A stretch of DNA of 64,000 nucleotides from Escherichia phage ph0021. The position numbers and the translations under genes are program-made. A model generated the notes under the pieces. That model worked only from the letters and a program-made list of their open reading frames with translations, ran no database searches and had not been told where the DNA came from. Below are positions 4,533-57,267 of this stretch, one piece after another (positions within the stretch are counted from its first letter, which is position 1; every line of letters starts with the position of its first letter). The DNA lies in the sequence record OP557970.1. The stretch is one strand, 5' to 3'.

Positions 4533-6589
4533 TACATTTTGAACTTTTTAGACATTCCGTTGATGTTAACCAAAGAAGTCAAGATTTGAGAAACTTCATT
4601 TTCCTCTTCTTTTGATTCTTCTACAAGGAATTGATTAAATCCAGCCATTGGACGAACTTCACCAGTTTCCATTAGATGGTCTCCATCATATACTGATTCT
4701 TCTAATTGTTCAGAAGGAGGAACGATTGTACCTTCGATTAGATACTTGTTATAAGCAGTTTCTTTCATAAAGTACGTACTTACTTTATTAATCTTCAGTA
4801 AAATTCCACGTGGTAGAATAACTTCAGCTTCTGACGGAAATCCTGATAAATGACCTGGAACGATAACTTTGATTCGCTCAGCTCCTTTAATTACCATACC
4901 CACGCTAGTTTCTGCATCTTCATTAGCATATGTAGAATGACTACCCATATGCATCAAATCTTCTGCATCAACGGAACCTTCTCCTTCACCAGAAAATACT
5001 GCGCCGGAATCATCTAGAGCCATATAGTTTTTACCATGCTCACCGAAGATATTTGGTTTAAGCGATGTGGATACGAAGTTCTTGAAATAGAACATTTTAT
5101 TTTCAATGTTATGACGCAAAGTTTTAAAGGTAACTTCTTGCCCACGGTAAAGTGTAGTTCCTGGAGGAAGAACTGATCCTTTGGCAAAGGCAGAATCTAA
5201 CGTCTCGATGTGCTTAATAGCTCGTTCCATGTATTCTTCACGGGTAGAATCTGGTTTACCCAAAAGGAACGAGTTCATTTCAACATATGAATCTGCACAA
5301 TAATCTTCAATTACATCAGATTCAGCCTGAGTCAGTCCTTTTGGAGCTACTTCGGTGCTTGCGTATTCATATGCCTGGGCAGCAGATTCATTAATCAATT
5401 TATAAATGCCATTCATGACAAATTGAATAATAGCTGTCTTTTCATCTGGTGTGGTTTTAGAACCTTTAACTAAATCATTAATAATTTTCTTAATAACATC
5501 AAAGCTATTAGAAATATTAATGTCAGCAAGATCGCTTAAAATTTTATCAGTTTTATAATCAAAGAATTCTTTATTCTTTAAATATTCTTGAGAACCTTGA
5601 TATGTTATATCGCTCTGCAACTTGATAGATGGATCACGTAAACGTGCATGGGCTAATGCAATATGATTTCGGAAACTTTCTAGTTCATAATCGTTAGATT
5701 TAAAACGAAAAGCACTTCTCATACCACCGATAGCTCCTTTGCTGAAGTTTGAACCAATCTGAATAACGCCAGAGTTCATTGGTCCTTCTGCTTTATATAC
5801 CGGAACTTTAGATTCAAATTCTTGATATTTCTTAGCAGCGAAGCTATCACCCTGAAGTGAAGCATCAACAGTAGAATATTGAGCTTGTGCTGCTAATCGA
5901 CGACTAATTTTAGTTTTCTGAATAACAGCTTGATCCGTGCGCTTATCATTTTCTAAAGCAATAGAAGCAGCAACAGCAACAGCTTTAGGAACAGCATTAC
6001 CTGTTTTAACGTCTACATAAACATCACCAACCTTTGATTCAACTTTTGTGAATAACTCGGTTGAAATAGGAGGTACACCTGGAATGTCTTCTAAATTGGC
6101 ATTTTTACGGTAAACCATAATATATGCGTACTTTTTATCATAATCCCAGATTTCCTTTAAAAGAACATATCGACCTGCTCCTTTAGTACGTACTAAACGG
6201 TCAGCAATAACTTGCATTTGACGAGCTGCGCCATTTGTTTTACTTTTTAGTACGCGGAATAGGCATGCATCAATTTTATACTGCTTCATTGTTTGAAGAG
6301 CAGTATCAAAAACAGCATTAATGACGCCAATTGGATTTCCACCCAAGTTTTTAAGCTTAACTAATGATAGTTTCTCATTAACACCTATCATTACGATATG
6401 CATCATTTTGTCGCCTGGCTTAACGTTTTTATTCGTATCACCGCCAGAGGTGTATGTACAAAATCTAAATCCAGGAAGCACGCTTTCTTCACCTGCTTGA
6501 ATAGCAAAAATTTGAGGTATTTTATGCTTAGGATTTAAGTTAACAACCGGCGCCGAAGCGCCGTCAAATAATTCTGTAATAAGTTCCAT
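4532..6589 (-). CDS. Alt-like ADP-ribosyltransferase, paralog 2
   Basis: 685 aa; N-terminal ~230 aa and C-terminus (YDGDHLMETGE) closely match the adjacent Alt; ART motifs LYRG, FVSTSL, EAEVILPRG; central region diverged. Confidence 0.8.
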   Translation of the reverse strand: MELITELFDGASAPVVNLNPKHKIPQIFAIQAGEESVLPGFRFCTYTSGGDTNKNVKPGDKMMHIVMIGVNEKLSLVKLKNLGGNPIGVINAVFDTALQTMKQYKIDACLFRVLKSKTNGAARQMQVIADRLVRTKGAGRYVLLKEIWDYDKKYAYIMVYRKNANLEDIPGVPPISTELFTKVESKVGDVYVDVKTGNAVPKAVAVAASIALENDKRTDQAVIQKTKISRRLAAQAQYSTVDASLQGDSFAAKKYQEFESKVPVYKAEGPMNSGVIQIGSNFSKGAIGGMRSAFRFKSNDYELESFRNHIALAHARLRDPSIKLQSDITYQGSQEYLKNKEFFDYKTDKILSDLADINISNSFDVIKKIINDLVKGSKTTPDEKTAIIQFVMNGIYKLINESAAQAYEYASTEVAPKGLTQAESDVIEDYCADSYVEMNSFLLGKPDSTREEYMERAIKHIETLDSAFAKGSVLPPGTTLYRGQEVTFKTLRHNIENKMFYFKNFVSTSLKPNIFGEHGKNYMALDDSGAVFSGEGEGSVDAEDLMHMGSHSTYANEDAETSVGMVIKGAERIKVIVPGHLSGFPSEAEVILPRGILLKINKVSTYFMKETAYNKYLIEGTIVPPSEQLEESVYDGDHLMETGEVRPMAGFNQFLVEESKEEENEVSQILTSLVNINGMSKKFKM

Positions 6590-51117: not shown

Positions 51118-53295
51118 TTAGGCCGCAAGGGCCTTCATAGTTTTAGCGATTTGAGAAACTTCATCATCACTTAAAGAGTTGCGATAACCGATGAAGTCGG
51201 AAACAATACGGAATTTCTTGGTAAACTCAGCAACCATTTTATCACTGTTTTTTGAAGCATTATTTGACAATACATCAAAAAGATTAGTTACTGTCCAGAT
51301 GTCATGACCAATGGTATCTTTTCCACCATTAAAATATACACCGCGCAATGAACTAACTATATTAGCGAGTCGTGTATATTCTTCAGAAACTTCATCTGTA
51401 CTGAAGTACTTCATCATAAAATCTAACTCAGGATACTTGATAATTTTATCAATATATCGTTGAGCTGAACTTGAATAACCTACGTACTTATCATAATCTA
51501 CATCATCAAAAGCATCTACATATAAATCACGCAAAGCTTCAAAAATACACTGGCACTGACCGAGTTCTTTTACCTTTTTCTGTAAAAGCGGACGAATAAC
51601 ATAAAATTCATTAATGCCAATAAGATTAGCCATACGAATCAAAATATTCATAGATGGATGACAAAGAGATGTAGTACCATCCATAGAGAAAATATCAGAA
51701 CGATGCATATACGCTACATAACCAGTAATTTCATCTGCTTCTGATGTGAGCGTAAATAATTCCTCTTTTTCCCAGCGCCCGTCTTTAATTTCAAACTTAA
51801 ATGCTGTAGCAGCTTTAGGACGAGGAGCTTTACTTTTAACTACCTTTGGAATATAGCTTTTAACTAAAGCTTCGATTTCTGACAAATAATGAATGTTAAC
51901 TTCATCACTTTCAAACATCGCCATAATATCAGGGAGTAAATCAATCTGCGATTCTACTTCTGGGTTAATAAACAGAAGGCGTTCGTTATGATGAATATTC
52001 AAAGTGTTATTAAATTCACTATCATCTAACGCTCGTGCTAATCCACGAACAATATTAACACGATTTTTAATATTATCAATAACGATATTAATTTTTGTTG
52101 TATTAATACCAAACAGACGATAACTTGATGCAACGGCTGAAGTTTCATGACTTTGCTTAATGCGTTTCAGTCGAGGGTCAAGATTTACTTCATACACAAC
52201 TCCTGCATTGCATAACTTACTATCAGGTTCAAACATGCTTTGCATCTTTTTATATGACAGATTTTTAGTCGTGAATTTAACTGAATTACTAATCATATAA
52301 TCTCGAGCAGAATACCCCATCTTCATCAATTCACGATATGTGTGACGAGGAGATGTGGATTCTTTAAATCGTTTTACATCTTCATTAAATGCTTTCTCAC
52401 TGAGTTCTTTAACTCGTTCAATAATATTTTTACGAGTACGATCATCCAGTGAAAGAGCCTCGCGAGATGGAGCAATATCAAGTGAACCCATTGGAAACTT
52501 AATGTAATTCACTTCATTGCGAATGCTTAGCCAGTTACGGTCTCTAATAACACCATCGATAGGATAAACAATACCGCCATAGATAGCATATAATCCACCA
52601 CGATCAGGCCAGTATCTTTCTGGATTTACACCGTAATAGTCATCAAAATCCGGAAAATAATCAATTTCGCGGTCAAGACCATTAATGATAGCCAAATCTT
52701 TGAATGGTCGCATGATATAAGAAACTTCATAAGCAAAGTTTCTAAAGTCTTTTTCTTCAACTGGAACTACGATTTCAATACCAGTTTTATCATCTGGACC
52801 CATTTCTTTTACGAATGTAGGTTTAATCTGTGGACCATCACCATCCATGTAAGCTACATAACCACGAATTTCGCCTTTATGATATGAAGTAATACTAAAT
52901 GTATCAGTATAACTAAACGGAGATTTAGAACCTAAACCAAATCCACCAATGAAATCGTTAGATTCAGCCTTAGATGAACTAAAGTATGAATTATACAACC
53001 CAGGAGAATTATCATCACCCTGAATATCAAAATCGCTCATACCTGGACCAAAATCACGACAAACAAATCGCGGATCTAATCGTCCTGGAACTTGAATGAT
53101 AAATTTTTCAGGATTTCCATTGAGAGCATGGGCATCAATCATATTGGTAATCAATTCACGGACTACTGCGCGAATCTTGTTTGTATACAAATCAGATGAC
53201 AGAATTTTAAATACTTTAGGAGATGCTGTGATGCTAAATGCTTTTGATTTAGAACCATTGCCAAGAATTGTTTCTTTTTCAGTGGTGATAATCAT
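51118..53295 (-). CDS. rIIA: rIIA
   Basis: 725 aa, T4 rIIA length; N-terminus [26 protein letters not shown]. Confidence 0.95.
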
Positions 53296-53305
53296 AATTT
53301 CCTCA

Positions 53306-53509
53306 TTAATTCATATTGCGTTTAATAACTTCAGCGACTTCTAGTAGTTCATCTTTAGTTGCAGTGTCAGATTGAATTTTATCTCTAATATCCTTAAAGC
53401 GGTTTTTAAACTCTTCAGCTTCTCCCATATCGAAAAAGCGTTGAATGATTCTATATTCTCGATGAACTGCTTTATCAAAAAGTTCTAAATTTACTTTATA
53501 TGATTTCAT
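53306..53509 (-). CDS. hypothetical protein (rIIA.1 position)
   Basis: 67 aa ORF with its own early promoter. Confidence 0.4.
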
Positions 53510-53535: not shown

Positions 53536-53565
53536 TTATACCACATCCTTGTGGTAAAGTAAACT
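53536..53565 (-). promoter_or_regulatory. T4-type early promoter
   Basis: GTTTAC (53560..53565), 17-18 nt spacer, TATAAT on minus strand. Confidence 0.6.
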
Positions 53566-55384
53566 ACTGGCTCATCCATTCTTTACGAAGGTCAGCATTA
53601 TCTCCCATGAGCATTTCAAAAAGCTCTTTCCAATTCTCAGGAAGTTTAACAACATCATATACTGGGTTTTGAATCATCTCACGATATTCAGATTTTTCCA
53701 AAGAGCCAAGTCCTTTAATATAACGGATGCTATGTTTAGGTAGAGCATCTTTGGCACTCTCATATTCAGCGACTGTATAAAACCATTCTTGTTTTTTACC
53801 AATTTGAGCGATGATTACAGGAGTTTTGACAAAACGAATTCGTCCTTGCTCAAACAATTCTGGCCAATTACTAAAAAATCCGAGCAAAGAAGGATAAATG
53901 CTTCCTAGACCATCATGGTCGGCATCAGTCATAATAGCAATATTATGATAATTTAAGTTTTCAGCCTTTTCACCGAGAACTAATCCAGTGATTGCGCAAA
54001 TATCAAATAGTTCTTTGTTTTTAAGCATATCTGCATAAGACATACCCCAACTGTTGAGAACTTTACCGCGCAATGGATAACCACCGTGAAGTTCTTTATC
54101 ACGAACATCAATAAGATATCCGATAGCCGAATCACCCTCAGTTAAGAATAGTGTAGTGTCAGCATCTTTACCGCAAAGATTCGCTTTAATATGTTTATGA
54201 ACCTTAGCTTTAGAAGCCTTTTTAGCTGCTTTAGTTTCTGCTGCTTTTTCTGCTGCCAATTTACGGGCCAAGGCAGCTTCAATAATCGGCATTAAAATTG
54301 CTTCATTATTTAGAATAGCGCGTGAAATCTTTTTAGCATCAAGTTGAATATGACTACGAATTTCGCCAAATGGAGAAGTCAAACGCTCTTTAGTTTGAGA
54401 ATCAAATCGCATGTTTTTCATATCACGGACAAACATAACGATAGTCAAACATTCTTTGACACGTGCTTTAGTCACATCAATTTTGAACTTACGTTTGATT
54501 TGCGGAATAAGGTCTTCACAAATATCATCCATAACACAGTCAATGTGATGGCCACCATTCTTAGTGTGAATGTTATTGACGTATGTTAATTGACGAAAAC
54601 CATCCGGTGAACGACCAACCGCAATAGAACAATTTTCTTGTTCTTGAACAATAGCATGCTCATCATATTGGCGTGCATATTTCTTAAAATTGCCCTGAAC
54701 CTTTTTACCATTAAAGGTAAATTGAATATCAGGATAAACTACTGCAAGTGTCTGGAGACGATCTAGTGTAATGTCAAGATAAACTTGAGATAGCTCATTA
54801 GTTTCAAATGACATAAAATCAGGAATGAAAGTAACACGTGTTCCTTTCCATTTTCCAGGAATATCTTCCCATGATTTATTTTCCATACCATTTGAACAAC
54901 GAACTACAATATTATTTTGACCGTCGCCAGTTTCACCAACAAACATCACAGAAAAAATGTTTGTCAAACTAGAACCAACACCGTTCATACCGCCAGTGAC
55001 GCGTTCTTTATCATCACCGAAGTTACCACCTGCTTTTGGAATAGTCCATGCAGCAACAGGACCAGGAATTTCTTCACCGGTAGGTGTTTTGACCATCGCT
55101 TGTGGAATACCACGACCGTTATCTTCAACTGTTACTTGATTGTTTTTAATAGTAACATTAATTTTATTCGCGAATTTAAACTTAGTACGAATACCTTCAT
55201 CTACTGAGTTATCGATAATTTCATCAATAAGCTTAACAAGACCAGGTACATACTGAACACTTTCCCATTTACCAAACAGAAAGCGCTCATGCATTTCATT
55301 AGCAGAAGAGCCAATGTACATGCCACTACGCTTTTTGATATGTTCAATATCGCTCAGAATTTTAATTTCATTCTTAATCATCAC
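53564..55384 (-). CDS. 39: topoisomerase II large (GyrB-like ATPase) subunit, single uninterrupted ORF
   Basis: 606 aa with GHKL ATPase motifs (IEVEDNGRGIP-like), no interruption or bypass element visible. Confidence 0.9.
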   Translation of the reverse strand: MMIKNEIKILSDIEHIKKRSGMYIGSSANEMHERFLFGKWESVQYVPGLVKLIDEIIDNSVDEGIRTKFKFANKINVTIKNNQVTVEDNGRGIPQAMVKTPTGEEIPGPVAAWTIPKAGGNFGDDKERVTGGMNGVGSSLTNIFSVMFVGETGDGQNNIVVRCSNGMENKSWEDIPGKWKGTRVTFIPDFMSFETNELSQVYLDITLDRLQTLAVVYPDIQFTFNGKKVQGNFKKYARQYDEHAIVQEQENCSIAVGRSPDGFRQLTYVNNIHTKNGGHHIDCVMDDICEDLIPQIKRKFKIDVTKARVKECLTIVMFVRDMKNMRFDSQTKERLTSPFGEIRSHIQLDAKKISRAILNNEAILMPIIEAALARKLAAEKAAETKAAKKASKAKVHKHIKANLCGKDADTTLFLTEGDSAIGYLIDVRDKELHGGYPLRGKVLNSWGMSYADMLKNKELFDICAITGLVLGEKAENLNYHNIAIMTDADHDGLGSIYPSLLGFFSNWPELFEQGRIRFVKTPVIIAQIGKKQEWFYTVAEYESAKDALPKHSIRYIKGLGSLEKSEYREMIQNPVYDVVKLPENWKELFEMLMGDNADLRKEWMSQ

Positions 55385-55450
55385 TTATCCTCGTTTGGTT
55401 TCGGGAATATTATACTCCGGTAATCATAAAGCTAAAGGCCCGAAGGCCTT

Positions 55451-55711
55451 TTATTTAAAACGAATAGTTGAATCCTTAAAGAACAGTCCAGAACATACTG
55501 TTCCTTCTACTTTCTGCCCAGTAGGTCCAATAGCACGAAATCCAGTATGTTGGAAATCATTTTCAGAGCAACCGAACCAGTTATATCCAGTGATTTCAAT
55601 ATTAGTAAAACCGCTTGAAGACAAAACTTTGGTTGCATTATCAGCATCAGTACATCCTACTAAAGACACTACTAATACTAATGCTGCAATAGAACGATTA
55701 ATATATTTCAT
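55451..55711 (-). CDS. small lipoprotein
   Basis: 86 aa; signal peptide with lipobox LVGC. Confidence 0.5.
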   Translation of the reverse strand: MKYINRSIAALVLVVSLVGCTDADNATKVLSSSGFTNIEITGYNWFGCSENDFQHTGFRAIGPTGQKVEGTVCSGLFFKDSTIRFK

Positions 55712-55713
55712 AA

Positions 55714-55890
55714 TTACCCTTTAAGCAAGTCGTAAAATCCGCCATTCACATGCTTAGGAGCGGAAACTAACCGAATAGCAATCCGATGACAATCAGGACA
55801 TACATCAGTATCCCTTTCAGAAATTTTCTTGATTTTTTCATATTCATGTCCGCAATCTTCGGATTGGCATTTATAATCATACATTGGCAT
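55714..55890 (-). CDS. FmdB-like zinc-ribbon protein (~58 aa)
   Basis: MPMYDYKCQSEDCGHEYEKIKKISERDTDVCPDCH: two CxxC pairs; hand-translated, below ORF-track cut-off. Confidence 0.45.
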   Translation of the reverse strand: MPMYDYKCQSEDCGHEYEKIKKISERDTDVCPDCHRIAIRLVSAPKHVNGGFYDLLKG

Positions 55891-55892
55891 AA

Positions 55893-56312
55893 TTATTCCT
55901 TAAAGTGTGCTTTCAACATCTGATACAAGGACCATGCTTGTTCATTATTTTCAATAATAACTTTCATGATCGGGAATTCTGTGAAATCTTCTATTTGTTC
56001 TTGCTCTTCCTGCTCTTGTTCTTCAGCTGCCTGATATGGATTTTCCACTTCATTAAAGAACTCAGCTTCGCTCGTTGAAAGCCAAATAAAATCTTCATCC
56101 AAAATATCTTTACCGGAGGATAACGCCAATCTTCCAGTAGATGTCACAATTTTAGTAGGACGACCAAGATGGTCAATATCTATAACTTTAAAAGGTTCCA
56201 TACCTAAACGCCGCGCATAGATTCCGTTATCAGTATGGTCTTTAATAAAATTTTCTTGAGCTTGTTTATTTTTAAATTGATACCATTTATTAACTTCGAA
56301 TTTAATAGCCAT
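55893..56312 (-). CDS. hypothetical protein with acidic repeat (goF-like position)
   Basis: 139 aa; [10 protein letters not shown] tract. Confidence 0.35.
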
Positions 56313-56530
56313 TAATAAATTTCCTTCCAGTAAGTTGTGCCATCTTCAGTAATTTCACGAAATACACCGTAAATTGGTTGTTTATCCCCAACCTTTTCAT
56401 ACACATAAACCGAAGTCAAGTGAGTAAACTTAGCAGTGTGTTCCTTTTGAACTACTACCAAATCTGGATCGAATAATACATCTTCAAATTCATCATTAGT
56501 GCAATTCTGAACAATTTTACGTTTCATCAT
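56312..56530 (-). CDS. hypothetical protein (cef-like position)
   Basis: 72 aa ORF. Confidence 0.3.
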
Positions 56531-56701: not shown

Positions 56702-57193
56702 TTATGCATAGCGAGCTTTGCTGTAGTGTTTAATCCAACTTTCAGGAATGACTTTGTATGTTCCTAAAAATACCGCGTTGTATAACTTAACGCCATCTTC
56801 TACCCATTGATCAGTAATGTATGCACACATAGCGCGAGTACGCTGAGGAAGTGGTTGTCCACCTTCGGTAAATTCAAACTCATAAGGAGCAATGAACTTG
56901 ATAGCTTGACCAAGTTTCCACTTAAAGTCTACACCTACATGCGAAGTATCAATCGTTTCAATTCCTTTAGCAGGAACAGCTTTCAAAAACGCAGGCTCAA
57001 GAAATTTCCATCGAACATAACCAAACTGGGGCTTAGACATTCCATCTTTAGCAATGATACGTACTTTTACTTCAGAATCTTCATCTTTAACACCGTGTTT
57101 AAGCTGAATGCTTACAACTTCGACCAATTTTCCTGCTGCTTTAGAACGGGATTTATCAGATACACGAGCAATTTCACCGATATTAATATTCAT
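56702..57193 (-). CDS. motB: MotB-like protein
   Basis: 163 aa at the T4 motB position upstream of dexA. Confidence 0.5.
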   Translation of the reverse strand: MNINIGEIARVSDKSRSKAAGKLVEVVSIQLKHGVKDEDSEVKVRIIAKDGMSKPQFGYVRWKFLEPAFLKAVPAKGIETIDTSHVGVDFKWKLGQAIKFIAPYEFEFTEGGQPLPQRTRAMCAYITDQWVEDGVKLYNAVFLGTYKVIPESWIKHYSKARYA

Positions 57194-57237: not shown

Positions 57238-57267
57238 ATTATACTCTGGTCCCAAGAGTTTGTAAAC
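57238..57267 (-). promoter_or_regulatory. T4-type early promoter
   Basis: GTTTAC (57262..57267) and GTATAAT -10 on minus strand. Confidence 0.55.

Follow-up and report, generated by a model that had tools for sequence, protein, structure and literature searches.

The two small genes at positions 55451 to 55890 of the window (the whole 64,000-nucleotide stretch of Escherichia phage ph0021 that we analyzed, record OP557970.1) appear to be the early genes 39.2 and 39.1 of a Tequatrovirus, independent accessory genes that encode, respectively, the chaperonin modulator NwgI and a prolipoprotein and that do not constitute a functional module. We put the probability of this reading at roughly 0.8. 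Both genes are already known from T4, so the locus itself offers little novelty.

A 571-bp stretch of the window (55380-55950) identifies it as a Tequatrovirus, matching OR584013 at 100% identity and hundreds of T4-like phages at more than 96%. (OR584013, the only record with 100% identity, is labelled 'Pseudomonas phage PsgM02F' with Pseudomonas coronafaciens as host, an odd label for a genome that otherwise has the look of an Escherichia Tequatrovirus.) The genes around the locus all lie on the minus strand and follow the same order as in T4: rIIA (51118-53295), rIIA.1 (53306-53509), gene 39 (53564-55384), 39.1 (55451-55711), 39.2 (55714-55890), goF (55893-56312), cef (56312-56530), and motB (56702-57193). 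The 39.1 ORF encodes an 86-aa prolipoprotein that starts MKYINRSIAALVLVVSLVGC, and the 39.2 ORF encodes a 58-aa zinc ribbon that starts MPMYDYKCQSEDCGHEYEKIKKISERDTDVCPDCHR. An earlier sequence-only reading of this DNA had both ORFs right to the nucleotide, in coordinates and in sequence, but had placed the pair downstream of gene 39, with the lipoprotein gene first and a gap of 3 nt. Given the minus-strand orientation of all these genes, the pair in fact lies upstream of gene 39 in transcription, which runs from goF through 39.2, 39.1, and a hairpin into gene 39. On the coding strand the zinc-ribbon gene therefore precedes the lipoprotein gene, and the spacer between them is 2 nt (GGG-TAA-TT-ATG, a TAATTATG junction). 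Gene 39 is unsplit in the window, a single 606-aa ORF that spans T4 gp39 and gp60, and mobA, 60.1, and the gene-60 bypass element are all absent from its region.

Comparison with T4 is complicated by its canonical record, NC_000866, in which the annotated lengths are 65 aa for 39.1 and 45 aa for 39.2, against true lengths of 86 and 58. Relative to the window, to Yersinia phage fPS-90, and to the resequenced T4 genome MT984581, NC_000866 carries one extra T in each of the two genes, and its lipobox reads LINS in place of LIGC, along with several other private substitutions. These private differences, which fall at 5590-5720 of NC_000866 when compared with MT984581 (window 55640-55780), truncate both 39.1 and 39.2 and remove the signal peptide of 39.1. 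We considered whether the two genes might be frameshifted pseudogenes in T4 and rejected this, as MT984581 encodes the complete 86-aa and 58-aa proteins and the length of gp39.2 given in the literature (PMC5153855) is 58 aa. Since a second T4-derived record (H158) also has an intact mature 39.1 domain, the differences in NC_000866 are most probably old sequencing errors, to judge from these sequence comparisons. Their effect has been to hide the lipoprotein nature of gp39.1, and the error has spread to UniProt (a 65-aa 'uncharacterized 7.2 kDa protein'), to PHROG (a 'singleton'), and to the design of guides for genome-wide knock-down.

Substitution patterns among T4-like orthologs indicate that 39.1 and 39.2 are more than chance ORFs, because variability is concentrated at third codon positions and synonymous codon differences outnumber non-synonymous ones. 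Variable sites at the three codon positions number 31, 14, and 73 in 39.1 and 12, 9, and 38 in 39.2, and the ratios of synonymous to non-synonymous codon differences are 344:191 and 128:60, respectively. A 136-aa shadow ORF lies antisense to the locus on the plus strand (55314-55724), spanning 39.1 together with the hairpin and the beginning of gene 39. We rejected it as a gene, given a ratio of 262:296 in its frame compared with 344:191 in that of 39.1. The T2 record PV958097 annotates this antisense ORF as a CDS (1442-1828) and omits the real 39.1.

The locus has the features of an early transcription unit, as the sequence-only reading had supposed. Upstream of motB, on the minus strand at 57238-57266, lies a near-consensus early-promoter-like element (TTTACA-17-TATAAT, 11 of 12 matches), and the homologous place before motB in fPS-90 is annotated 'predicted early promoter'. 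A motB-cef-goF-39.2-39.1 early transcript would likely originate at this site, and in T4 the transcripts of all five genes belong to the early class (PMC9697503, Table S2). Downstream, a predicted hairpin with a 7-bp stem and a UUCG tetraloop (AAAGGCC-UUCG-GGCCUUU, 55434-55451, minus strand) overlaps the 39.1 stop codon by 1 nt and is followed on its 3' side by a weak U tract. The hairpin is invariant among the window, T4, and fPS-90 and is annotated 'terminator' in fPS-90; a simple terminator scan made no call at this position. From its sequence and place, it is a probable 3' end or stabilizer of the early transcript. Immediately beyond it on the minus strand, at 55409-55433, is a middle-promoter-like element for gene 39, consisting of a MotA-box-like AGCTTTA (55433-55427), a 12-nt spacer, and TATAAT (55414-55409). 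As fPS-90 is annotated with a 'predicted middle promoter' at the homologous position, we infer that this element may work as a gene 39 promoter.

At the protein level, T4 gp39.1 has been detected by mass spectrometry, with protein class 'late' and with its N-terminus not covered, while gp39.2 was not detected in the same work (PMC9697503, Table S2). Expression in T4 is thus established for both genes as early RNA and for gp39.1 as protein. In CRISPRi-ART knock-down of T4, the scores were -0.45 (p = 0.92) for 39.1 and 0.08 (p = 0.26) for 39.2, both classed 'Not Fit', compared with 1.84 (p = 0.0008) for gene 39 (PMC11879866). This lack of a fitness effect in the laboratory host is consistent with accessory roles and agrees with the earlier placement of both genes outside the core functions. 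However, the 39.1 guides (5565-5615) were designed from a mis-annotated internal start and erroneous reference bases (PMC11879866, supplementary files 15 and 25), so the 39.1 result may be a false negative.

The product of 39.2 is a zinc ribbon by profile search, as had been proposed, scoring above the curated cut-offs of both Pfam PF09723 Zn_ribbon_8 (46.0 bits, cut-off 34.4, 5e-12) and TIGR02605 FmdB (CxxC_CxxC_SSSS; 47.7 bits, cut-off 31.3, 1e-12). Its predicted zinc ligands are C8, C13, C31, and C34, arranged as C8-x4-C13 and C31-x2-C34. An alignment of orthologs from several Tevenvirinae genera shows conservation of MPxYxY, KISERD, V(S/T)AP, and, at the C-terminus, GGFYDLL; nearly all orthologs keep the four ligands at variable spacing, and in one lineage the first knuckle reads C..H. 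The window protein shares the MPxYxY start, the two Cys pairs, and V(S/T)AP with the FmdB family, but its first knuckle, like those of Tequatrovirus and Mosigvirus orthologs generally, is C-x4-C, whereas more distant orthologs have the canonical CxxC. An AlphaFold model of 39.2, built from a shallow alignment, was unusable (pLDDT 54).

By sequence and position, the window gene is an ortholog of T4 gp39.2: it occupies the same place between goF and 39.1, has the same length and the same motifs, and is identical to the resequenced T4 protein (MT984581) at 52 of 58 residues, the six substitutions being M3L, E11K, G14A, H15K, I37L, and I39V. T4 gp39.2, 58 aa, was named NwgI by Ang & Georgopoulos 2012 (Genetics 190:989) and, according to PMC5153855 and PMC4396842, is a modulator of GroES/GroEL that shifts GroEL towards an open state able to bind a co-chaperonin. 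The same papers describe a T4 39.2 deletion that does not grow on certain groEL mutants and refer to literature on T4 and RB69 for allele-specific suppression of groEL/groES mutants by 39.2. By orthology, the window's 39.2 product would be a cytoplasmic zinc-ribbon protein that moves GroEL into an open state able to bind GroES or a phage co-chaperonin and so keeps chaperonin-dependent phage growth possible where the host GroEL is sub-optimal. We assume that the window allele, six residues from that of T4, modulates GroEL likewise.

The earlier suggestion that the zinc ribbon could be a regulator, and that neither gene had an explanation, does not hold for 39.2, whose chaperonin function in T4 is published. 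A transcriptional role is one half of a competing interpretation, whose other half makes 39.1 an exclusion factor (discussed below). It draws on several records that name 39.2 an 'FmdB-like transcriptional regulator', but Pfam and TIGR profile searches found no DNA-binding domain in the protein. The FmdB 'regulatory' name has no experimental basis for 39.2, and the sole phage member that has been studied acts on the chaperonin. Given the published function of NwgI, we regard the label as a family name and not as functional evidence.

We next turned to 39.1, which the sequence-only reading had described as an 86-aa lipoprotein with lipobox LVGC. The protein satisfies a PROSITE PS51257-type rule, which calls for Lys or Arg in the first 7 residues, an uncharged hydrophobic h-region, a lipobox of the form [LVI..][ASTVI..][GAS]-C, and a Cys at 15-35. 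In 39.1 these are K2 and R6, the h-region AALVLVVSL, and L-V-G-C with the Cys at position 20. The predicted signal peptide (aa 1-19) is encoded at 55711-55655 and the codon of the predicted lipidated Cys20 lies at 55654-55652, both on the minus strand; the remainder of 55451-55711 encodes a mature domain of 67 aa with a putative C48-C73 disulfide, as judged from the family alignment and AlphaFold. The window protein is 84/86 identical to that of resequenced T4 (MT984581), and the mature parts are identical.

A profile search of 1.84 billion cluster representatives, with clusters defined at 50% identity, recovered 2,225 clusters of the 39.1 family at E <=1e-3 and 1,118 at <=1e-10. We aligned 200 family representatives to the family HMM and counted residues by HMM column. 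The lipobox column is Cys in 180 of the 200, as expected for the lipoprotein that had been proposed; 178 combine this Cys with a hydrophobic h-region, and in 17 others a TM-type anchor takes its place. (Pfam LPAM_1 matches 9 of 35 members.) Of the positions that follow the Cys, +2 holds Thr in 165 representatives and Ser in 19, and +3 holds Asp in 120 and Asn in 29. Positions 48 and 73 both carry Cys in 185 representatives; the two Cys are missing together 9 times, in at least 4 residue combinations, and one without the other 3 times, which is the covariation expected of a periplasmic disulfide. Near-invariant residues in the same set are Y43, D52, T56, F58, A60, G70, K79, T82, and R84.

By the sequence rule, then, gp39.1 is a genuine exported lipoprotein, and it is expressed in T4. 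Sequence rules further suggest that the prolipoprotein is Sec-exported, that Cys20 receives the lipid and signal peptidase II removes the signal peptide, and that the Lol system then delivers the product to the outer membrane, in its inner leaflet. In E. coli, lipoproteins without Asp at +2 are transferred to the outer membrane; with Thr at this position, 39.1 would by that rule probably be sorted there. For homologs with a TM anchor the expected location is the inner membrane, and which of the two membranes holds the protein may therefore be unimportant. The mature domain would face the periplasm as a helix and a four-stranded sheet stapled by the C48-C73 disulfide. In the AlphaFold model, made from a 35-sequence alignment, helix 23-32 is packed on four strands, with a pLDDT of 78 overall and 75-94 in the domain.

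Neither the sequence nor the model led to a family of known function. The window protein belongs to PHROG 902 ('unknown function'), and a Pfam search of 35 family members matched only the lipid-attachment motif. Searches with the family found no match among PADLOC profiles or, by sequence profile, in the PDB, and a Foldseek search with the model returned nothing significant. In a second profile search, the best 120 of 401 matches all had neither a Pfam domain nor a functional name, and a literature search for the function of gp39.1 found no relevant paper. The model resembles cystatin, PepSY, and VirB8/NTF2-like alpha+beta domains, but at the level of the fold only and with no sequence-profile signal. 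So generic a fold hints, weakly, at a module for binding or inhibition.

Does the zinc ribbon nonetheless act together with the lipoprotein, for example by controlling or chaperoning it? The idea of a 39.1/39.2 functional module could appeal to the tight 2-nt junction, to the order shared by T4-like loci of several genera, and to two family members in which a Cys-rich N-terminal extension is fused to the 39.1 domain. However, goF and 39.2 meet in an identical TAATTATG junction, which makes it a local style of gene packing. In an iterative HMM search, a 39.2-like ORF lay upstream of 39.1 in 25 of 69 IMG/VR loci, all of them T4-like, and all 25 also keep dexA-motB-cef-goF and gene 39. At about 45 non-T4 viral and about 20 bacterial 39.1 loci we found no 39.2-like ORF and no T4 neighbors, and in Stenotrophomonas and Pseudomonas jumbo phages no zinc ribbon adjoins the 39.1 homolog.

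Even within the T4-like phages the two genes are separable. In Pseudotevenvirus RB16, the 39.1 homolog (L100 2441-2704) sits away from gene 39 among a series of small ORFs, with a putative endolysin and a PhoH-family gene following about 1.2 kb downstream. A small ORF lies between 39.2 and 39.1 in Karamvirus, and a goF paralog does so in many Tequatroviruses, T2 included. This paralog, of 105-123 aa (phrog_622, E = 3e-29), is found for example in Shigella phage sb2 (L002 1838-2209) and in four further loci (L005, L006, L008, and L009), with a truncated copy in T2 (L104 1080-1397); the window and T4 do not have it. The fused extensions were also considered as a 'Rosetta stone' link between the two families and rejected, since they occur in 2 of 200 members (P0169 and P0196) and the 39.2 HMM is silent on them at E <=10. 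Finally, the product of 39.2 is cytoplasmic and that of 39.1 is exported. The chance that the two form a module is very slight, and the 'gene pair' of the sequence-only reading dissolves into two genes linked only by synteny within Tevenvirinae. We conclude that 39.1 and 39.2 are independently inherited accessory genes that are neighbors only in that group.

The distribution of 39.1 bears on what it may do. Its mature domain reaches 99% identity or more in 313 phage records and 95-99% in another 180; these 493 records at >=95% come from phages of Escherichia, Shigella, Yersinia, and Salmonella. Beyond these, family members turn up in unrelated phages and, across several bacterial phyla, in chromosomes. 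We located the bacterial loci with a degenerate DNA pattern and read the identities of their neighbors from N-terminal sequences, not from profile searches. Some of these loci look phage-like, with a polymerase and a primase (L083), a CI-like repressor (L078), or ThyX and a GIY-YIG nuclease (L074). Others are apparently chromosomal: six Acidobacteriaceae MAGs (L081, L082, L086, L090, L092, and L093) have a homolog adjoining an aroA-like gene, in which a TM anchor with a conserved VEDLHL motif replaces the lipobox, and in a Patescibacteria MAG (L084) the homolog lies among ScpA/ScpB-like genes. No neighbor family recurs at the non-T4 loci outside close relatives. The domain itself has been elaborated in several ways, among them a tandem duplication (P0123, 142 aa), a Cys-rich N-terminus with a prepilin-like GFTLVEM segment (P0169), a CxH...CPGC N-terminal extension (P0196), and a long N-terminal extension in a 241-aa Polaromonas protein (L087 3976-4701).

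For the function of gp39.1, our working proposal is that it binds and blocks a broadly conserved target, either periplasmic or associated with the cell wall, or else an incoming phage component, and thereby protects the envelope of the infected cell. This proposal is plausible but tentative, with the odds somewhat against it. A conserved target is suggested by the near-invariance of Y43, D52, T56, K79, T82, and R84 across about 2,200 clusters and by the identity of the mature domain in T2 and T4.

The sequence-only reading had raised superinfection exclusion as a frequent role of such small lipoproteins. The identity of the T2 and T4 domains bears on its specific Llp/Cor form, in which 39.1 would mask the phage's own outer-membrane receptor while the zinc ribbon served as transcriptional regulator. 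T5 Llp and lambdoid Cor, which block FhuA, are small phage lipoproteins at the cell envelope, as is 39.1, and T5 Llp is expressed early. The small size, early expression, and predicted outer-membrane location of 39.1 fit such a role, as does its general resemblance to T5 Llp, and there is a marginal PHROGs match to Cor (phrog_1119, E = 0.067). That match, however, covers residues 8-29 only, which is the signal peptide, and in the PHROG profile search the mature part showed no sequence relationship to Cor or Llp. T2 and T4 use different receptors. Because their mature 39.1 domains are nevertheless identical, receptor masking is unlikely; across T2, T4, and the 493 records with at least 95% identity, the domain does not vary with the phage receptor. 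Moreover, the family is spread over many phage types and phyla, including Acidobacteriaceae and Patescibacteria chromosomes, unlike Llp or Cor. Taken with the evidence on the regulator half, this combined interpretation is improbable.

A periplasmic inhibitor of a protease or peptidoglycan hydrolase, comparable to PepSY/cystatin domains or to T4 Spackle, would be a more specific version of the working proposal, and one that we consider unlikely. Spackle is a small periplasmic inhibitor that acts on the gp5 lysozyme of a superinfecting phage. Together with Imm, Spackle (gp61.3) is one of the T4 superinfection-exclusion proteins, which are early, non-essential, and located in the envelope, as 39.1 is. 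In contrast to both, 39.1 is predicted to be lipid-anchored, and we found no homology between it and either protein; nor has an exclusion phenotype been reported for 39.1.

The late accumulation of gp39.1 protein in T4 might instead point to lysis, with gp39.1 as an o-spanin-like lipoprotein or a lysis-timing factor, and its small size, its predicted outer-membrane location, and the position of the RB16 homolog near an endolysin could be cited in the same sense. Yet 39.1 belongs to the early transcript class, and its neighbors are 39.2 and gene 39, with no i-spanin-like gene beside it. Its mature part is modelled as a folded alpha+beta, disulfide-stapled globule and not as a proline-rich extended peptide, and T4 already has its spanin pair elsewhere. 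We therefore give a lysis role very little credence.

Returning to a conserved envelope target as the preferred proposal, a bolder form of it would place gp39.1 at the head of a large family that has escaped curation, built on a membrane-anchored, disulfide-stapled periplasmic domain of 67 aa. Phages of many types and phyla would carry the gene as a mobile 'moron' whose product acts on one universally conserved envelope target, and it would have been overlooked in T4 because the reference sequence had erased its signal peptide. We consider this less likely than not. If it were true, phages would have in this family a novel kind of effector directed at the envelope, which might, for instance, bar superinfection or lysis from without in a general way or inhibit an enzyme of the cell wall.

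Collectively, these data offer nothing new on 39.2 beyond the correction of a label that misleadingly makes a transcription factor of a chaperonin modulator. For 39.1, they reveal in T4 and its relatives an expressed lipoprotein, which the canonical NC_000866 sequence conceals. The family to which it belongs is very widespread and uncurated, and may hold a new envelope function.
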